Assembly (NCBI GenBank): GCA_020846875.1
Contig: JADLDB010000121.1
Span: 1 to 17,802 of the forward strand
Direction: 5' to 3'
Length of the DNA stretch: 17,802 nucleotides
From: Myxococcales bacterium
Lineage (GTDB): Bacteria > Myxococcota > Myxococcia > Myxococcales > Myxococcaceae
Positions within the stretch are counted from its first letter, which is position 1. Each line of letters opens with the position of its first letter. A model generated the notes under the pieces. The model was not told the origin of the DNA. It worked only from the letters and a program-made list of their open reading frames with translations, and searched no databases. Positions 4,768 to 17,775 of this stretch are shown here, piece by piece. A program made the position numbers and the translations under genes.

Positions 4768-5730
4768 TCAGCCCGGCTGCGCGAGGGCGCGAAGCGTGAG
4801 CAATAGCTCCTGGAGCAGCTCGTCCGGCCGCTCGTGGAGGGCCGACCAGGTCCAGTGCAGGACGCGGAAGCCGTGCGCGGTGAGCGCGTTGTTGCGCGCC
4901 CGGTCCTTCTCGAAGCTGCCCAGAGAGGCATGCACCGCGTAGCCGTCGGCTTCGATGACGATGGGCGTGCCGGGGACGAGGAAGTCCAGACGGCGCAGGC
5001 GGCCGCCTACCCTGACAACGCGCTGGCGCTCCGCGCGGGGAAGGCCGGCGGTGTCGAGCAGCTCCATGACCCGCGCCTCCAGCTCGCTCTCGGTGGGCCC
5101 GTCGCCGCCGAGGTACTCGTGGACCAGCCTGCGCAGAAAAGCCGTCCCGTGCCGGCGGGGTGCACCGCCCAGCGCCGCCTCCATCCGTTCCAGCGTCACC
5201 CACCGTCGGCGCAGGGCTTCGTCGAAGCAGGCCTGGACGTCGGGCTCGGGCTCCGAGGCGCCGAGGTCGAGCAGGGTGCGCGCGGCGGAGGTCACCCGAA
5301 AGCCGTCGATGCTGACGAGCTCGCGGTGCGAGAGCGGGTCGACGCGATGGAGGATGACGGGCGCGTGCAGCCGAGCGCTTCGGACGAGGGAGAGTTCCAG
5401 CGCTCCCTCGGGGAAGCGGGCGAAGCCCCACAGCGCCGCCGCGGACCGGTGCGACACCGCGAAGTCCCGTTCGGCCCACAGCGACGCAGCCTTGAGCTGC
5501 TGACGCCACGTCTGCGGCGCCCCTTCGACGCGGTAGACCCGCGGAAGGACCCGGACCAACTGTCCGGATTCCACCCGCCGCTCGATCTGCCGGCCGCTGA
5601 GTCCGTGCGCCTCGGCCTGATCTCTCCGAATGACCCCGTACTGCCGTGCCGCGACCCGAAGCGTCGCGGTTTCTGCCCCGTCGACCATCACCGTCCTCCG
5701 GTTCGGGCCCATAGCAGACGGGTCTGACAT
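4768..5730 (-). CDS. DUF559 (Vsr/restriction-endonuclease-like fold) protein with an N-terminal AbiEi_4-like winged-helix region (320 aa).
   Basis: The N-terminus (TATLRVAARQYGVIRRDQAEAHGLSGRQIERRVESGQLVRVLPRVYRV) resembles the AbiEi_4 domain. The C-terminus (RLDFLVPGTPIVIEADGYAVHASLGSFEKDRARNNALTAHGFRVLHWTW) is DUF559-like. Start is ATG at 5728-5730; alternative in-frame Met codons lie 6 and 14 codons downstream. Confidence 0.65.
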   Translation of the reverse strand: MSDPSAMGPNRRTVMVDGAETATLRVAARQYGVIRRDQAEAHGLSGRQIERRVESGQLVRVLPRVYRVEGAPQTWRQQLKAASLWAERDFAVSHRSAAALWGFARFPEGALELSLVRSARLHAPVILHRVDPLSHRELVSIDGFRVTSAARTLLDLGASEPEPDVQACFDEALRRRWVTLERMEAALGGAPRRHGTAFLRRLVHEYLGGDGPTESELEARVMELLDTAGLPRAERQRVVRVGGRLRRLDFLVPGTPIVIEADGYAVHASLGSFEKDRARNNALTAHGFRVLHWTWSALHERPDELLQELLLTLRALAQPG

Positions 5731-5764: not shown

Positions 5765-5921
5765 CCATGTAGAAGTGGTGCACTGAAAGCTTCCGGGCTG
5801 CTCCTCGCCAGGGCGGGCGGTGCACCAGAATGGAGCGGCCCTGACCGAGGTCCGGCCCGTTCGCCATGGCCTGCGGCTCGCATTGTCCCCCCTCGGACCC
5901 GCAGCACCCCTGAGGAGAGCC

Positions 5922-10928: not shown

Positions 10929-13900
10929 ATGTCCGCCTGTCCGTCCTGCGGCACCACCGCCCCTGCCGACGCGCGCTTCTGCCAGCGCTGCGGCGCCGCG
11001 CTCCCGTCCGTCGAAGGCGCCACCGACCCCTACATCGGCCGCGTGGTGCAGAACTACCGCATCATGTCCGTCATCGGCGCCGGCGGCATGGGCAAGGTGT
11101 ACCGGGCCGAGCAGGTGAAGCTGAAGCGGCCGGTGTGCCTGAAGACGCTCCTGCCCCACCTGGCCAATGATCCCACCCTGGTGCAGCGCTTCGAGCTGGA
11201 AGGCGTGGCCACCGCCGCCATCCGCCACCCCAACATCGTCCAGGTGATGGACTTCGGGCAGCTCGACGACCGCACCCTCTACATCGCCATGGAGTACGTG
11301 GAGGGCAAGACGCTGCGCGAGGTGCTGCGCCAGGAGTCGCCCGTCACGCTCTCCCGCGCCCTCACCATCGTGCAGCAGATGCTGTCGGGCCTCGCCGAGG
11401 CCCACGCCAACAACATCGTCCACCGGGACCTGAAGCCGTCCAACGTCCTCATGTCGCGGCTGCGCGACGGCACCGACCTGGTGAAGCTGGTGGACTTCGG
11501 CATCGCCAAAATCCTCGGCCAGGAGAGCGAGGGCAAGCAGCTCACCCGCACCGGGATGATGGTGGGCACCCCCGGCTACATGGCCCCCGAGCAGATGCTC
11601 GGCGAAGCCGTCGCGCCCACCACCGACCTCTACTCGGTGGGCGTCATCTTCTGGGAGCTGCTCACCGGGCAGAAGCTGTTCGGCCGCGTCGAGGAAGCCG
11701 AGCTCGCCCGCCGCCACCTCACCATGCCGGCGCCCTCGCCCTCCTCGGTGTCCCGGGTGCCGCTGCCGCCGGAGGTGGATGAGATCATCCTCCGCGCCCT
11801 CGAGAAGCGCCCCGAGCGCCGCTACCAGACGGCCATGGAGTTCGCCCGCGCCCTCGACGCCCTCGAGGCTGGCACCCGGCTCCGCTCCTCCGTCTCGGGC
11901 CTCACGCCCATGCCCAGCCCGGCCCTCTCTCCGCCGCAGGGCCACCCCGTGCACGCCCCCGCCACCGGCCACGGCACCCACCAGTCCACCGGCTTCGGCA
12001 CCCTGGGCAGCCTCACCCACCTGCGCGGCGCGGTGCCCGAGAAGCTGCTCACCTACACTGCCTCGCTGGCCACCATGGTGGGCGAGCGCCGGCAGCTCAC
12101 CGTCGCCTACGGCGAGGTGGCCACTCCCAAAGGCCCCGACGTGGACGCCGCGGCGATGCGCGCCGCCACCTCCACCATGCTGCAGGAGCTGCAGGACCTC
12201 GGCCTCAAGCTGGGCGGCGTCACCATGCGCCTGCCCGGCAACGCGCTGGCCCTGGCCTTCGGGCTGGGCGACGAGGAAGACAGCGGCGTCGGCGCGGCGA
12301 TGCGCTTCGCGCTGGAAGGCACCCAGCGGGTGGGGGAGGCCAGCGCCCGCCTGCCCCGGCCGATGACGCTGCGGGTGGGGCTCCACAGCGGCGCCGCCGA
12401 GGACGCGGTGCTGGCCGAGCGCGCCTTCGAGTCGCAAGGGGTGGAGGAGCTGCTCGCCGTCGCCCGCCGCCTCGCCTCCCTCGCGCAGCCGGGCCGCCCG
12501 CTGGCCACCCGCACCGTCCAGAAGCGCACCGCCGAGCGCATCACCTGGGCGGAGCGGCCGTCGCTCGCCGGCGACGACCTCGGCCCCCTGTACGAGGCGT
12601 CGGAGCTGCGCGAGCGCAAGGTGACGCTCGAGCCGATGGTGGGCCGGGCCGTCGAGCTCGACTACGTCAACAAGCTGCTCGACCAACTGGTGGAGTCGCG
12701 CCCCGGCGGCTTCCTCTTCGTCGGCGGGCCGGGGGCCGGCAAGTCCCGCCTGCTGGAGGCGGCCGCCCAGCGCGCGCTGGAGCGGCGGGTGACGGTGGCC
12801 CGGGCCCGCGGTGGGCGCTTCGGCGGCGCCTCGGCCTTCGACGTGGTGCGACAGTTGGTGCACTCGCTGTCCGCCCCCAGCGTGGCGGACGAGTCCGCCG
12901 ACTCCACCCGCACCACCCTGGCGGGCCTGCAGAAGCTGCACGTGCCGCAGGCCGACATCGAGCGGCTGGAGACGCTGCTGGGCTCGCAGGCGCAGCGCGC
13001 CTCGTCCGGGGCCACCGCCGAGGAGAACCAGAACCTCGACCGCGCGGTGTTGCTGGAGCTGTTCCGCACCGTGTCGAAGCGGCACCGGCTCCTCATCCTC
13101 GTCGACGACGCGCACCTCGCCGACGCGCCGTCGCTGGAGCTGCTCACCGACGTCATCTCCCGCGCGGGCGGCCTGGGCGTGGGCATCGTGGCCGCGGCGC
13201 GCGCCGGCTCGAGCGACGTGCTGGGGCAGCTCAAGCGCTTCGAGCTGGGGGCCCTGACCCGCAGTGAGGTGCAGCAACTGGTGGCCGGCCGCCTCCCTGG
13301 CGGGCCGCCTTCGGCGCAGCTGGTGGACCTGGTGTTCGAGCGCAGCGACGGCAACCCGCTCTTCGCGCGGGAAATCGCCCTGACGCTGGTGGAGTCGGGC
13401 GCGGCCAGGCAGGTGGGGACCGAGTGGCAACTGCAGGGGAAGCTGGACGAGCTGCCCGACTCGCTCGCCGCGCTGATGAGCTCGCGCCTCGACCGCCTGT
13501 CGGCGCAGGCCCGCCTCCTGCTGCGCTTCGGGGCCATCGCCGGGCGCACCTTCCCAGTCCCGCTGGTGACCGCCGCGGTAGACGCCCCCCTCGACGTGCA
13601 CGCGGCCATCAGCGAGTGCGTGCACCGCGGCATCCTCTCGCCGGCGCCCAACCAGCGCGACGCGTACCACTTCAACCAGGCGCTGATGCAGGACGCGATG
13701 GTGGCCCGCATCACGCCGGTGGACAGGAAGGCCGTGCACCTGCGCCTCGCCGAGGCCATCGAGCGCGGCACCACCGCCGGCGCGGAGAACGCGCTGGAGG
13801 CCATGGCCCGGCACTTCCAGGGCGCGGACCAGCCCCGCAAGGCGGTGAAGTACCTCAAGCTGGCGGCCGACGACATGCGCGAGCGCCGCGCCTGGGCCGC

Positions 13901-14747
13901 GGCGGTGGAGGCCTACCGCCAGTGCCTGACGCTCTTCGCCCAGCACGCGATGGGCAGCGGGCCGGTGGCCGACGCTACCGCGCAGCACCTCCTCGACATC
14001 GTCGCGCTGGCCGCGTCCGCGCAGCTGATGATTGGCCCGGCCGAGGTGGTGGGCATGGTGGACTCGGCGCTGGCCCGCGTGCCCGACTCCAAGGCGCCCC
14101 AGGGCCGGGCCGAGGTGCTGCGCCAACGAGCGCTGGCGCTGCAGCGCCTCACCCGCCTCCCCGAGGCCGAAGCCGACCTGCAGAAGGCGGTGTCGCTGGT
14201 GCCGGCCGCGTCCGCGCCCCAGCTGGCCGCCTCGCTGCGCGCCGACCTCGCCAGCGTGCTGGAGGCCAGGGGCGACTTGAACACCGCCGCCAAGCTGCTG
14301 GTGGAAGGCCTGTCCTGGCTGTCCAACCGGAAGCTCGAGGACAAGCACCTGCTCTGGCAGTACTTGAACCAACTGGGGCGCATCCACGTGCGCCTGGGCA
14401 AGCTGGTGGAGGCCGGCGAGTTCTTCGACTCCGCGCGCAACCAGGCGAAGGTGGTGCACTCGGTGCTGGGCGAGTCGCGCGTGGTGTCCAACCTCGCGGT
14501 GCTGGCCGCCAGCAGGAAGGACGTGGGCCAGGCGATGACGATGTTCGACGAGGCGCGCCAGTTGGCGGAGGAGGCGGGCGATCGCCTGGGCGTCTTGCGG
14601 GCCCGCTACAACCGCGCGCGCATGCAGCTCACCGTCCGGCCCGAGGAGGCGAAGGTCGAGCTCAAGGCGGTGGCCGACGAGGCGCGCGCCCTCGGGTGGC
14701 GCGAGGGCGAGGCGCTGGCCGTGCAGGCGATGACGCCCGCGCGCTGA
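10929..14747 (+). CDS. Multidomain Hanks-type Ser/Thr protein kinase (1272 aa). Domains in order: N-terminal zinc ribbon, kinase domain, Pro/Ser-rich linker, degenerate class III nucleotidyl-cyclase homology domain, AAA+/STAND-type ATPase and C-terminal TPR-like repeats.
   Basis: Zinc ribbon: CPSCGTTAPADARFCQRCG. Kinase motifs: GAGGMGKVYRA, HRDLKPSNVLM, DFGIAK, GTPGYMAPE. Cyclase-like region ~12078..12540 (ERRQLTVAYGEV...GNALALAFGLGD...LRVGLHSGAAEDAV) with the metal-binding Asp positions substituted. P-loop GGPGAGKS and Walker-B-like LLILVDDAHLAD. An Ala/Leu-rich helical repeat C-terminus. Confidence 0.9.
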   Translation: MSACPSCGTTAPADARFCQRCGAALPSVEGATDPYIGRVVQNYRIMSVIGAGGMGKVYRAEQVKLKRPVCLKTLLPHLANDPTLVQRFELEGVATAAIRHPNIVQVMDFGQLDDRTLYIAMEYVEGKTLREVLRQESPVTLSRALTIVQQMLSGLAEAHANNIVHRDLKPSNVLMSRLRDGTDLVKLVDFGIAKILGQESEGKQLTRTGMMVGTPGYMAPEQMLGEAVAPTTDLYSVGVIFWELLTGQKLFGRVEEAELARRHLTMPAPSPSSVSRVPLPPEVDEIILRALEKRPERRYQTAMEFARALDALEAGTRLRSSVSGLTPMPSPALSPPQGHPVHAPATGHGTHQSTGFGTLGSLTHLRGAVPEKLLTYTASLATMVGERRQLTVAYGEVATPKGPDVDAAAMRAATSTMLQELQDLGLKLGGVTMRLPGNALALAFGLGDEEDSGVGAAMRFALEGTQRVGEASARLPRPMTLRVGLHSGAAEDAVLAERAFESQGVEELLAVARRLASLAQPGRPLATRTVQKRTAERITWAERPSLAGDDLGPLYEASELRERKVTLEPMVGRAVELDYVNKLLDQLVESRPGGFLFVGGPGAGKSRLLEAAAQRALERRVTVARARGGRFGGASAFDVVRQLVHSLSAPSVADESADSTRTTLAGLQKLHVPQADIERLETLLGSQAQRASSGATAEENQNLDRAVLLELFRTVSKRHRLLILVDDAHLADAPSLELLTDVISRAGGLGVGIVAAARAGSSDVLGQLKRFELGALTRSEVQQLVAGRLPGGPPSAQLVDLVFERSDGNPLFAREIALTLVESGAARQVGTEWQLQGKLDELPDSLAALMSSRLDRLSAQARLLLRFGAIAGRTFPVPLVTAAVDAPLDVHAAISECVHRGILSPAPNQRDAYHFNQALMQDAMVARITPVDRKAVHLRLAEAIERGTTAGAENALEAMARHFQGADQPRKAVKYLKLAADDMRERRAWAAAVEAYRQCLTLFAQHAMGSGPVADATAQHLLDIVALAASAQLMIGPAEVVGMVDSALARVPDSKAPQGRAEVLRQRALALQRLTRLPEAEADLQKAVSLVPAASAPQLAASLRADLASVLEARGDLNTAAKLLVEGLSWLSNRKLEDKHLLWQYLNQLGRIHVRLGKLVEAGEFFDSARNQAKVVHSVLGESRVVSNLAVLAASRKDVGQAMTMFDEARQLAEEAGDRLGVLRARYNRARMQLTVRPEEAKVELKAVADEARALGWREGEALAVQAMTPAR

Positions 14748-14749
14748 CG

Positions 14750-16054
14750 TCAGGCGAGGAGGAAGTGCGGCGGGTTGACGTTGGCCTCTTCCGCGCTCAC
14801 CGAGCCCTCGATGGCGTTGCCGGGCTCCCTGGAGAGGTCCAGCACGTAGTCCACCGGCGCGTCGTTCTCCCGCACCACCTTCACCACCGGGCGGGTGAAG
14901 GCCGCCGCGTCCGCCGGCACCTCCAAAACCACCGCCAGCTGTCCGCCCGTCAGCCGCACCGTGGTGCCCACCGGGTAGAGGCCCACGGTGGCGGTGAAGA
15001 GGTCCACCACGAAGGGGTCGAAGCGCGTCCCCGCCTGCTCGCGCAGCACGCGCAGGGCCTGGTCGGGCGCCATCGGCTTGTGGGGCGGCGAGGGACAGGT
15101 GAGGAGGTCGAAGGCGCACGGCACGGCCAGCAACCTCGCCGCCGCGCCGGGCGTCCACACGCCCCGCTGGTTGGCGGACAGGCCCAGCTCGAAGGCCAGC
15201 GCCGCCTGGAAGAGGGCCTCGTCGGAGATGGGCGGCGCGGACAACCGCATCAGCGTGCGCCGGGCCACCGAGGTGGCGTCGTGCGCGCCGGGCTCCGCGC
15301 GGCCGATGTCGTGCACCAGCGCCGCCACCGCGAGGTCCAGCGTCACCGCGCGGGTCAGCCTCAGCTTCCGCGCCATCAGCAGCGTCAGCGCCGCCACCGT
15401 GGAGAGGTGGAAGTGCAGCGCGCCCTGGAAGTTGGGGAAGCGCGTCAGGCCGGAGAGGAGCGACTCGTAGCCCAGGGACGCGTCGGCCATGCCCTGCACC
15501 GCCTTGCGCAGGTTGGGGCCGCGGAAGCGGGCGCCCTTGTGCGCGCGGTCCAGCGACTGGTGCGCCACCACCGTCACCCGGGCGAAGGCGCGCAGCACGT
15601 TCTGCCGGGCGTCGATGGTGAACCCCGCGGCGCCGTCCAGCACGCCCTCCAGCGCTCGCAGCCGCACCCGCCCGTTGCTGCTCTTCACCGTGCCCTGCGG
15701 CGTCTGGGTGCGCCACGCGGCCTGGAAGGCGGAAAGGAAGTCGCGCAGCTCCTCTTCGTGCAGGTCCTGCGGCCAGGTCAGCTCGTGCAGGCCCAGCTTG
15801 CCGAAGGCCTTCCGCAGCGCCTCTGCCGCGTCGTACACGTGCTGGGCCAGCTTCACCGCGGTGTTGTTGACGAAGACGGTTTCGGCGAACACCACCACCG
15901 CCACGTCCGTCTCCTGCTGCTTGAGCAGCTCCATCAAGGCCCCCACCGGCTGGGTGAAGATGGCGTTGTTGATGGGGTGCTGCTGCGCGAGGCGCAGGAT
16001 GCGCGCGGTCGCCACCAGGAGGTCCGCCTGGGTGTTGGTGGTGGGGGTGCTCAT
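14750..16054 (-). CDS. HD-domain protein (HD-GYP-like metal-dependent phosphohydrolase superfamily), 434 aa. The HHE/GYP motifs are not evident.
   Basis: An H...HD metal-binding dyad is present (ALHFHLSTVAA...LVHDIGRAE). Overall length and layout resemble myxobacterial HD-GYP-type proteins, but I cannot find a GYP motif. Clean ORF. Start ATG overlaps the upstream gene in ATGA. Confidence 0.6.
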   Translation of the reverse strand: MSTPTTNTQADLLVATARILRLAQQHPINNAIFTQPVGALMELLKQQETDVAVVVFAETVFVNNTAVKLAQHVYDAAEALRKAFGKLGLHELTWPQDLHEEELRDFLSAFQAAWRTQTPQGTVKSSNGRVRLRALEGVLDGAAGFTIDARQNVLRAFARVTVVAHQSLDRAHKGARFRGPNLRKAVQGMADASLGYESLLSGLTRFPNFQGALHFHLSTVAALTLLMARKLRLTRAVTLDLAVAALVHDIGRAEPGAHDATSVARRTLMRLSAPPISDEALFQAALAFELGLSANQRGVWTPGAAARLLAVPCAFDLLTCPSPPHKPMAPDQALRVLREQAGTRFDPFVVDLFTATVGLYPVGTTVRLTGGQLAVVLEVPADAAAFTRPVVKVVRENDAPVDYVLDLSREPGNAIEGSVSAEEANVNPPHFLLA

Positions 16055-17775
16055 CCCTTGCCCACCCGGGAGAGCGCGGCGCGCGCGGCGGCCTTCACCC
16101 GCGGCGTGGCCAGCAGCTTGTGTGACAGCGACTCGAGGGGCTTGTGGGCAGCCGGGTCACCCAACACCGCCAGCGCGCCGATGCAGGCCACCGTCACGTC
16201 CGGGTCCTGGCGCTTGTCCAGCTCGGCGAGGAGCGCGGTGGTGGCTGCGCGCCCGCCCAGCTTGCCCAGCGCCGAGTACACCCGCACGCGCTCGTCCTCG
16301 GCGACGTCGGTGCGCGCGAGCAGCTTGCCCAGGGCCGGCGCGGCCGAAGGGTCCTCCAGCTCCACCACCAGCTTGAGGAGGCGGCTGCGCACGTCGAGGT
16401 CGTCCTCGGTGAGGTGGGCGGCCAGCACGCCGCGCGGCAGGCGCACCGCCAGGGTGGCATTCAGAGCGCCGGCCGCCAGCCGCCGCACCTCCACGTCCTT
16501 GTGCTCCAGGCCCTGGCGGAGCAACTGCGTGGCCTCGGCGGGGTGCATGCCGTCCAGGCGCTTCACGAACTCCCCGAAGGACGCGGCGTTCAAGTCGGCG
16601 ACGTTGATGTTCTTCGTCGCGCCCGCGGGCGCCACCTCGGCCATCAGTCCGGACGCGGCCGCGCGCGCGTTGGGGTGCGTCAGCTTGGCCACCTGCTCGC
16701 GGAAGCCGGCCCCGAGGGCGGGGGCGAGCAGCTTGAGGGCGTCCAGCGCCTCGGGGGCGTTGCCCTCGGCGGCGTCGAGCGCGCGCAGCAGCGGGTCGAG
16801 GAAGGCGGCTGAGATGAAGAGGGGCCGCAAGGTCTGGAGCAGCTTGGCGCGCGCGGCGCCAGAGTCCTGGTCCACGCGGGCGTCGGCCACCAGCGCCTGG
16901 TAGGCGTCCAGCGCGGCGCGGAAGGAGCCGCGCTCGGCCAGCCCGGTGAAGACGTCGGACAGGCGGCGGGTGTAGGCGAGGGACTCCGCTTCTTCGACGC
17001 TGAGCGCGGCGTTGATGAGGGCCCTGGCGGCGCGGGGAATCGCGTCCTCCCGCGGGGTCAGCGCGACGACGAGGTTCTCCATGTCGCTGCTGGACAGGTG
17101 CAGCTTGGCCACCTTGGCGTCCTGCTGCGCCAACTTCTCCCCGGTGACCCCGCGCACCAGCTCGGAGCGCAGCAGCGACACGTCGTCGGAGGACACGCGC
17201 AAGAGCGCCGGTCCGGCGACCCCGGCGCTGCCGCTCGACTCGCTGGCCATGGCGGAGATGAGCGCGTCCAGCTCCTGGCGGGCGCCCGCCTCCTTCGCCG
17301 CATCGGCGCCCTCGTCGTCGTCGGACAGTGAGAAGGTGTCCAGCACCACCAGGCGGATGCTCTCCAGCTCCAATTCCCAGCAGCGGGTGGAGAGCGCCTC
17401 GGAGGACTGCGGGTTGAGCACCACGTTCATCCACGCGTCGATGAAGGCGTCGCGCTCGTTGGCCGGCGGGTTGGGGGAGAAGGTGATGCGGCGGATGCCC
17501 TCGTTGAAGAGGGGCATGGTGAGGGGATCGCGCTGGCCCACGCGGCTGCCCACCTGCTCGCCGTCGAGCGCCAGGCCCTGGAGCGTGATTTCGAGGGGGA
17601 GTTCCTCGTCCTTCGTCACGTTGACGAAGTGCTCGCGGAAGCGCTCCAGCGCAGCGCTGGCCAGCGGGTGGTTGCGGCCGTAGGAGCGCCCCGAGTCGAT
17701 GGCGCGGCGCAGGAGCTGGAGCAGCAGGACGATGGCCTGCTTGCGGACGTTGCTGACCTTCTCCCCCTGGGCCAT
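16051..17775 (-). CDS. HEAT/PBS-lyase-type repeat protein (574 aa), translationally coupled to the downstream HD-domain gene.
   Basis: C-terminal repeated helical hairpins with HEAT-like spacing (LGKLLARTDVAEDERVRVYSALGKLGGRAATTALLAELDKRQDPDVTVACIGALAVLGDPAAHKPL). A 4-nt ATGA overlap with the HD gene at 16051-16054. Start is ATG at 17773-17775. Confidence 0.7.
   Translation of the reverse strand: MAQGEKVSNVRKQAIVLLLQLLRRAIDSGRSYGRNHPLASAALERFREHFVNVTKDEELPLEITLQGLALDGEQVGSRVGQRDPLTMPLFNEGIRRITFSPNPPANERDAFIDAWMNVVLNPQSSEALSTRCWELELESIRLVVLDTFSLSDDDEGADAAKEAGARQELDALISAMASESSGSAGVAGPALLRVSSDDVSLLRSELVRGVTGEKLAQQDAKVAKLHLSSSDMENLVVALTPREDAIPRAARALINAALSVEEAESLAYTRRLSDVFTGLAERGSFRAALDAYQALVADARVDQDSGAARAKLLQTLRPLFISAAFLDPLLRALDAAEGNAPEALDALKLLAPALGAGFREQVAKLTHPNARAAASGLMAEVAPAGATKNINVADLNAASFGEFVKRLDGMHPAEATQLLRQGLEHKDVEVRRLAAGALNATLAVRLPRGVLAAHLTEDDLDVRSRLLKLVVELEDPSAAPALGKLLARTDVAEDERVRVYSALGKLGGRAATTALLAELDKRQDPDVTVACIGALAVLGDPAAHKPLESLSHKLLATPRVKAAARAALSRVGKG

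Follow-up and report, generated by a model that had tools for sequence, protein, structure and literature searches.

We analyzed a 17,802-nucleotide stretch of DNA from a Myxococcales bacterium (contig JADLDB010000121.1 of GenBank assembly GCA_020846875.1; hereafter, the window), concentrating on a gene on its + strand at 10929..14747. Codon-position G+C, Pfam matches and orthologues indicated that this gene encodes a 1272-amino-acid (aa) protein in which a zinc ribbon, a Ser/Thr kinase, a degenerate cyclase-homology domain (CHD; a pseudo-cyclase), a STAND NTPase and TPR repeats follow one another. The G+C content of the window is 72% and the window contains many long spurious open reading frames (ORFs); true genes were told apart by codon-position G+C. 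The G+C content at third codon positions (GC3) of the ORF at 10929-14747 (+) was 0.97, marking a true gene. We rejected a 2507-aa ORF at 8193-15716 (-), antisense to the kinase gene and its neighbors, as a high-GC artifact, given the GC3 of 0.97 and the Pkinase match on the + strand. The kinase-gene product is deposited at NCBI as MCC6336727.1, 'MAG: protein kinase [Myxococcales bacterium]'; the public annotation goes no further than 'protein kinase' because the standard Pfam threshold misses the CHD. Orthologues of the protein were present in two metagenome-assembled genomes (MAGs) of Myxococcota, with identities of 82% and 77%.

The protein begins with a four-Cys zinc ribbon (C4, C7, C18 and C21; aa 4-25, 10938..11003, +), which scored above the Pfam cut-off (Zn_Ribbon_1, 9.8e-6) and has all four cysteines (4/4) invariant in the orthologues. 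The Hanks-type Ser/Thr kinase domain follows (11055..11873, +; Pkinase, aa 43-300, 1.3e-47). All of its motifs are present, namely GAGGMGKV, the VAIK Lys (K72), the alpha-C Glu (E89/E91), HRDLKPSN (D167, K169 and N172), DFG (D189) and GTPGYMAPE, and the catalytic motifs are invariant across orthologues, among which the domain has 86-95% identity and a ratio of nonsynonymous to synonymous substitution rates (dN/dS) of 0.08-0.27. Judged by these intact motifs, the Ser/Thr kinase is apparently active. A Pro/Ser-rich variable linker comes next (aa 316-365; 11874..12023, +), poorly conserved and with indels between orthologues; its dN/dS was about 1.1-1.3 in two of the three orthologue pairs.

Between the kinase and the P-loop NTPase lies the catalytically degenerate class III CHD (about aa 385-545; 12081..12563, +), delimited by homology searches, alignments, an AlphaFold2 model and dN/dS. 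A preliminary description of this stretch, made from the letters alone, had proposed such a domain here and had suggested a Pfam scan for Pkinase, Guanylate_cyc, AAA_16 and TPR. Three of these four scored above threshold, whereas Guanylate_cyc (PF00211) remained below it: the match was confined to aa 433-530 and, at 13.0 bits (E=0.08), fell short of the gathering score of 21.9. The description had also held that the lack of any Guanylate_cyc hit would speak against its proposal, an outcome that was narrowly escaped through this sub-threshold match.

Other searches were more informative. Using aa 351-584 as a query, phmmer found CyaB of P. aeruginosa in PDB (3r5g, E=0.0038), and the weaker matches were nearly all class III cyclases, including Rv1625c and chains of soluble guanylyl cyclase. 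An exhaustive phmmer search with aa 365-570 against 1.84 billion cluster representatives returned 33 proteins at E<=1e-3; Guanylate_cyc was found at E better than 1e-3 in 26 of the 28 full-length matches scanned. We then used a clade profile made from the window CHD and its closest degenerate relatives. Against PDB it matched 30 distinct sequences, 30/30 of them class III cyclases (best 8.2e-19), and against a 5.8-billion-protein database it matched 19 proteins, 19/19 with PF00211, in a search that has a word prefilter and did not recover the clade members themselves. The AlphaFold2 model of aa 366-570 had a mean predicted local distance difference test score (pLDDT) of 91.4, and the best 50 Foldseek matches of this model in PDB were all class III cyclase domains (top 7.4e-12, a figure to be read with the input of the model in mind, as discussed below). 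With the exhaustive-search homologues, the clade profile and the fold search in agreement, we consider the class III cyclase homology of this region secure, as the preliminary description had claimed.

A word-indexed homologue search with aa 341-824 returned seven matches, including two close fragments, and was uninformative on the CHD. One of these fragments (P0002) ranks as the nearest 'homologue' of the CHD region in the database: its 456 aa pass straight from the kinase N terminus to the last part of the CHD, after which the frame is lost, and it is an assembly or gene-calling artifact, chimeric or frameshifted.

The CHD is preceded by a conserved helix (RGAVPEKLLTYTASLATMVG; 12024..12080, +), recognized by clade conservation, the model and alignment. 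All clade members share P370 and L373, residues 6-18 of the model are helical, and in canonical cyclases the corresponding aligned segment is LNILPxxIAxRL. An N-terminal cyclase transducer element helix has been described in dimeric class III cyclases (PMC5995499), and the position of the helix in the window protein suggests that it may be cyclase-transducer-element-like.

We read the state of the catalytic positions from three agreeing alignments, made with HMMER to CyaB, Cya2 and Rv1625c and with MAFFT together with 22 canonical cyclases. The catalytic residues of Rv1625c (D256, K296, D300, D365, N372 and R376) correspond in the window protein to E396 (metal Asp1), R434 (substrate-specifying Lys), N438 (metal Asp2), E507 (substrate-specifying Asp), A510 (transition-state Asn) and R514 (transition-state Arg), respectively. 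The K-4-D and D-7-N-4-R spacings agree with the alignment to Rv1625c chain 4p2f, and the CHD alignment is free of indels from the beta-4 Gly to the Asn position. Five of the six canonical positions are thus changed, Asp1 conservatively to Glu, and only the Arg (R514) is retained. The preliminary description had read a replacement of the metal-binding aspartates from the strings TVAYGEV (aa 391-397) and GNALALAF (aa 437-444). Both strings are present as it stated and both aspartates are replaced, the first by a residue that is still acidic; the changes of Lys to Arg, substrate Asp to Glu and Asn to Ala extend its case for a pseudo-cyclase, and the alignments to CyaB, Cya2 and Rv1625c show that the catalytic residues are not intact. 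On this residue pattern, the CHD is apparently catalytically dead.

The altered positions are not drifting freely. E396 and N438 are invariant in the three orthologues. Four distant full-length homologues (P0008, P0009, P0012 and P0015) have the same architecture, lengths of 1250-1272 aa and 42-57% overall identity; a further homologue (P0010) is N-terminally truncated. Among the clade members, E396, R434, G437, E507 and R513 are invariant even though identity across the CHD is only 25-38%, and Asn, Ser or Thr occupies position 438 in every case; the Arg at R514 is not kept in every member. Because the E/R/[NST]/E/R residues are fixed despite such low identity, the former active site appears to have been remodeled to a new conserved pattern. 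Selection estimates (Nei-Gojobori, orthologue pairs) gave a CHD dN/dS of 0.21-0.32, compared with 0.37 for the NTPase and 0.32-0.36 for the TPR region. The CHD is under purifying selection and is being maintained, not decaying. Purifying selection and the clade-invariant residues lend indirect support to the plausible view that the pseudo-cyclase is kept as a dimerization or regulatory module. In a further protein with the same architecture and the same neighbors (P0013), Asp1 is replaced by Glu, whereas Asp2, Asn and Arg are all retained; it passes the Pfam Guanylate_cyc threshold and looks like an intermediate.

C-terminal to the CHD, the core of a STAND-type P-loop NTPase (12636..13160, +) was detected as AAA_16 at aa 570-744 (4.7e-14). 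Its Walker A motif, GGPGAGKS (K605; aa 599-606, 12723-12746, +), stands where the preliminary description had placed it, and Walker B is LLILVDD (D726 and D727; 13089-13109, +); both Walker motifs are conserved without change in homologues, and 11 of these all share D726, D727 and H729. The helical arm and winged-helix region of the STAND module (13161..13778, +), recognized from model secondary structure and alignment to 6mfv, includes a GxP motif, GNPLF (aa 808-812; 13350-13364, +), invariant in the orthologues. The remainder is a C-terminal TPR superhelix (13779..14744, +), with matches at aa 1061-1128 to TPR_12 (2.7e-11) and TPR_2 (1.7e-7) and all-helical hairpins in the model; it is presumed to be the sensor or partner-binding domain.

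A model of aa 561-1272 (pLDDT 83.7) had as its best Foldseek match the STAND-TPR protein PH0952 (crystal structure 6mfv, 9.3e-15), aligned at full length over 712 columns, followed by Avs3 (8dgc, 5.3e-11), Apaf-1 and CED-4; TPR domains of LGN/Pins were interspersed with these, and SAMD9 and plant NLRs ranked further down. A sequence-profile search of PDB with the C-terminal 712 aa returned TPR matches (LGN/Pins) and weak generic P-loop matches (MalT 8bob, 0.005; PH0952, 0.0024), so the STAND assignment rests mainly on the fold search and the motifs. The predicted fold, together with the Walker motifs, the GxP motif and TPR_12, confirmed the earlier proposal of a STAND-type ATPase with TPRs.

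Immediately downstream and convergent with the kinase gene are two genes on the - strand, as the preliminary description had noted. The first (14750..16054, -) encodes a degenerate HD-GYP-like protein of 434 aa (HD_5, 3e-10, partial; profile matches) and the second (16051..17775, -) a HEAT-repeat protein of 574 aa (HEAT_2, 2.4e-6). The stop codons of the kinase and HD-like genes are 2 nucleotides apart (window 14745-14752, TGA cg TCA), which leaves no room for terminators between them. The HEAT and HD-like genes overlap by 4 nucleotides (ATGA, 16051-16054) and thus form an operon, an arrangement that suggests translational coupling.

A profile of the HD-like protein matched HD-GYP phosphodiesterases (V-cGAP3 5z7c, 3.1e-6; PmGH 4mcw, 3.1e-5; PA4781 4r8z, 1.1e-4). 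The window protein keeps the HD dyad (H248 and D249), and across its family the first His is kept throughout, HD in most members, and E289 is invariant. Whereas canonical HD-GYP phosphodiesterases have HHE ligands and a GYP motif, the window protein and its family have neither: 11/11 members aligned with four canonical HD-GYPs have AFE (the form in the window protein) or AYE in the HHE position and a 4-residue deletion where DGxGYP would stand. About 200 N-terminal aa have no family match. By these sequence features, the neighbor is only a distant, degenerate relative of HD-GYP proteins. The family comprises about 47 clusters; wherever an organism is given for the source, it is one of the Myxococcota ('Deltaproteobacteria' in one older annotation). 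One member (P0077) is encoded in an Archangium sp. MAG.

The kinase, HD-like and HEAT genes are syntenic in every related locus, while the other flanks differ. Identities of the kinase, HD-like and HEAT proteins to those of the window were 82%, 74% and 69% at locus L001, 77%, 70% and 67% at L002, 56%, 52% and 41% at loci L004-6, 46%, 44% and 32% at L007, and 42%, 42% and 25% at L009, respectively. The triad is also present on the P0013 contig. On the contig of a more distant relative (P0103), where the HD-like protein has 35% identity, all three genes are co-directional instead of convergent, in the order HEAT, HD-like, kinase; the kinase there is 1347 aa long, with the zinc ribbon listed behind its kinase domain. 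At locus L010 (HD-like protein, 37% identity), the kinase gene is cut by the contig end. A very distant HD-like member (P0108, 23% identity) has a neighbor in the HEAT position and no kinase. At one locus, that of P0009 in a Myxococcaceae MAG (L007), the kinase gene has a pair of PilZ-domain genes immediately upstream (7033-7908, -); it is the only locus of this kind. Large kinase-AAA_16-TPR paralogues (for example, one of 1518 aa) and other Pkinase genes also occur a few kb from the triad (L007, 19253-19816, +; P0013 contig), which fits the expanded myxobacterial kinome.

The fusion architecture itself is already known, being catalogued as TIGR03903 (TOMM kinase/cyclase fusion), which shares with the window protein the collinear order of Hanks kinase, CHD, AAA_16/STAND and helical repeats. 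TIGR03903 was the best NCBIfam match of the whole protein at 321.7 bits, far under the equivalog cut-off of 705.75. In the kinase-free part, aa 368-994 align in one stretch to TIGR03903 positions 266-912 (157 bits, 5.7e-46). A true member of the family (P0032, 1281.6 bits) has a CHD with Ser at metal Asp1 and Gly at the Lys position; since this CHD has lost Asp1 and Lys, the curated family already contains a kinase fused to a STAND module and to a CHD that is in part degenerate. The preliminary description was right about the presence of a Hanks kinase and a zinc ribbon, both found by Pfam, but the wiring to a kinase is not unusual. The window protein differs from TIGR03903 in its N-terminal zinc ribbon, in a more degenerate CHD (Asp2 and Asn also lost) and in its conserved neighbors, the HD-GYP-like and HEAT genes. 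TOMM genes (a cyclodehydratase/docking protein and a precursor) were not found in the window or in the related loci, and we rejected membership in TOMM biosynthesis on this ground and on the sub-cut-off score.

The part C-terminal to the kinase also has relatives in proteins such as Rv0386, an active cyclase. In Rv0386, Rv1358, Rv2488c and related CHD-AAA_16-TPR proteins, the CHD stands directly N-terminal of AAA_16/STAND and is followed by TPR-type repeats, as in the window protein. A preprint describes Rv0386, Rv1358 and Rv2488c as a mycobacterial cyclase-ATPase-TPR-LuxR architecture (bioRxiv 10.1101/2024.03.06.583649). The likeness to this group that the preliminary description had pointed out holds for the body of the protein, which is homologous to CHD-AAA_16-TPR proteins and collinear with TIGR03903; the closest canonical CHD relative of the window domain belongs to one of them (P0011). 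It does not extend to the LuxR part, as no HTH or GerE domain was found in the window kinase protein by Pfam down to E=1. In all, Rv0386-type proteins have no kinase, end in a LuxR-type HTH and have CHDs that keep the catalytic residues, and the window protein differs in all three respects.

The closest studied functional analogue, by likeness of description, is PknK of Mycobacterium tuberculosis, a characterized Ser/Thr kinase classed in the STAND family (PMC9045387). Like the window protein, it is described as a soluble N-terminal Hanks kinase on a STAND/MalT-like regulatory region. In PknK, no CHD is described between kinase and NTPase, and the phylum and gene neighborhood differ. What is new at the present locus is a Myxococcota clade with a fully degenerate yet conserved CHD that Pfam misses, a fixed E/R/[NST]/E/R pattern and a conserved three-gene set.

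STAND proteins work as ADP/ATP switches: a ligand of the sensor triggers oligomerization, gathering N-terminal effectors, as in MalT, Apaf-1 and NLRs. Hanks kinases are activated through dimerization and trans-autophosphorylation, and class III CHDs are obligate dimers. It is because of these three properties that we propose a coupling mechanism, the dimeric action of class III cyclases having also been documented (PMC5995499). On balance, we lean towards the view that the window protein is a soluble signaling kinase in which the STAND NTPase, with its TPR sensor, controls the Hanks kinase, the dead CHD between them serving as a structural coupling and dimerization module. Its ancestor would have been a cyclase-STAND-TPR signaling protein of the Rv0386 kind, corresponding to the body of TIGR03903, in which the CHD was an N-terminal effector activated by STAND oligomerization. 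In the lineage of the window protein, a kinase would then have been gained at the N terminus and CHD catalysis lost, with the fold, the preceding helix and probably the obligate head-to-tail dimer interface kept. Descent from a cyclase-STAND protein is proposed because the nearest canonical CHD is that of P0011 and because P0013 retains Asp2, Asn and Arg.

Under this mechanism, the NTPase would be freed from auto-inhibition once the TPR region binds a ligand or partner, and ADP/ATP exchange would drive NTPase switching and oligomerization. Pairs of pseudo-CHDs with their preceding helices would juxtapose the kinase domains, allowing trans-autophosphorylation of the activation loop (candidate residues T206, T208 and T214). 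The kinase would then phosphorylate its targets, and the co-inherited HEAT and degenerate HD-GYP-like proteins would be the likeliest partners, as regulators or substrates.

Several points weigh against this mechanism. The input alignment of the CHD model was rich in canonical cyclases, and the fold match partly reflects that input. The beta4-beta5 'tongue', part of the cyclase dimer interface, had no predicted hairpin in the monomer model, and the canonical dimer interface may therefore be altered, although we give this feature low weight. A conserved gene neighborhood is no proof of physical interaction. Our literature searches on the myxobacterial kinome, kinase/cyclase fusions and inactive CHDs in bacterial kinases found no experimental work on any clade member or on TIGR03903. 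Finally, the invariant E/R/E/R residues of the former active site resemble a conserved binding site more than a passive scaffold.

This last point favors a different role, in which the pseudo-cyclase is a ligand sensor: the remodeled pocket would bind a nucleotide (ATP, GTP or a cyclic mono- or dinucleotide) or a small molecule and gate the kinase or the STAND switch allosterically. The HD-GYP-like neighbor would then be a second, non-hydrolyzing nucleotide receptor, and the triad a second-messenger-sensing kinase module made from two pseudoenzymes. We regard this as possible, if rather unlikely. It accords with the residues that are invariant or tightly restricted in the clade, namely Glu at Asp1, Arg at Lys, Ser, Thr or Asn at Asp2, Glu at the substrate Asp and the adjacent R513, but these conserved charges could equally be salt bridges stabilizing an empty pocket or the dimer interface. 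The HD-like family, which keeps the first His, E289 and mostly HD and lacks HHE and GYP, would suit such a receptor. PilZ domains bind c-di-GMP, and the two PilZ genes directly upstream at L007 point in the same direction; this association, however, is confined to that one locus. By analogy, inactive cyclic nucleotide cyclase domains in other bacterial multidomain systems have been suggested by Aravind's group to 'merely bind a nucleotide' (PMC7159879). A bolder form of the idea, which we think improbable, is that the triad is an undescribed myxobacterial signaling module in which two pseudoenzymes, derived from enzymes that make and degrade cyclic nucleotides, now serve as receptors for nucleotides or second messengers and gate a STAND-controlled kinase, with the E396/R434/E507/R513 pocket as the ligand site.

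An anti-phage or conflict system, in which an Avs-like STAND would sense an invader protein via its TPRs with the kinase as effector, seems very unlikely. The C-terminal part does resemble Avs3 (8dgc, 5.3e-11) and other immune STANDs in Foldseek, PADLOC kinase models, PD-T4-6 and mad6 among them, match the kinase domain, and an AbiEi_4/DUF559 gene is present in the window at 4768-5730. The PADLOC matches, however, are limited to the generic kinase domain (aa 40-316). In PADLOC-DB, neither the STAND part nor the HEAT protein had any system-specific match, and the HD-like protein had only a weak match to a Cas3g HD domain (E=1.6e-4). The triad is stably inherited, with orthologous divergence of the three genes across Myxococcota, unlike the patchy distribution of defense islands, and the neighboring genes are of housekeeping types (GH1, redoxin).

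In characterized class III cyclases (Rv1625c and mammalian adenylyl cyclase mutants), single substitutions at the catalytic residues abolish most activity. That the CHD is still an enzyme, using Glu396 and Asn438 in a non-canonical metal arrangement or making an unusual product in a bifunctional kinase-cyclase, is for us the least probable reading: Asp1 to Glu is conservative, the catalytic Arg position is kept, the CHD is well conserved and P0013 retains Asp2, Asn and Arg in the same architecture, but five of six canonical residues, including metal Asp2 and the transition-state Asn, have changed together, and other clade members have Ser or Thr at Asp2 and do not always keep the Arg.

Myxobacteria have very large families of eukaryotic-like kinases whose regulatory logic is almost wholly unknown. 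The locus is a clean and conserved case of what looks like control of a Ser/Thr kinase by a STAND switch, exerted via a fossilized cyclase domain, and the two co-inherited candidate partners make the hypothesis testable. It is also a well-defined case of pseudoenzyme retention in bacteria, with an apparently dead cyclase and a seemingly dead HD-GYP protein kept under selection, the former missed at the standard Pfam threshold. The system itself is not of a new kind, as the TIGR03903 architecture is catalogued and kinase-STAND proteins such as PknK have already been studied.

The upstream genes of the window are unrelated to the triad and syntenic only in the closest relatives; they encode GH1, MVP-like, AbiEi_4/DUF559, redoxin and DUF4395/thioredoxin proteins. 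Between the MVP-like gene and the GH1 gene (window 8072-9327, about 1.25 kb), no ORF had the codon-position G+C typical of coding sequence, and Pfam gave no match. The 320-aa ORF at 4768-5730 (-) combines an AbiEi_4 antitoxin-type HTH (3.7e-8) with DUF559/REase_MTES_1575 endonuclease-like domains. The 750-aa ORF at 5820-8072 (+; GC3 0.94) encodes a major-vault-protein-like protein (Pfam MVP_shoulder, 8.4e-28; Vault_3, 9.8e-7), which has 85-92% identity in the two closest MAGs.

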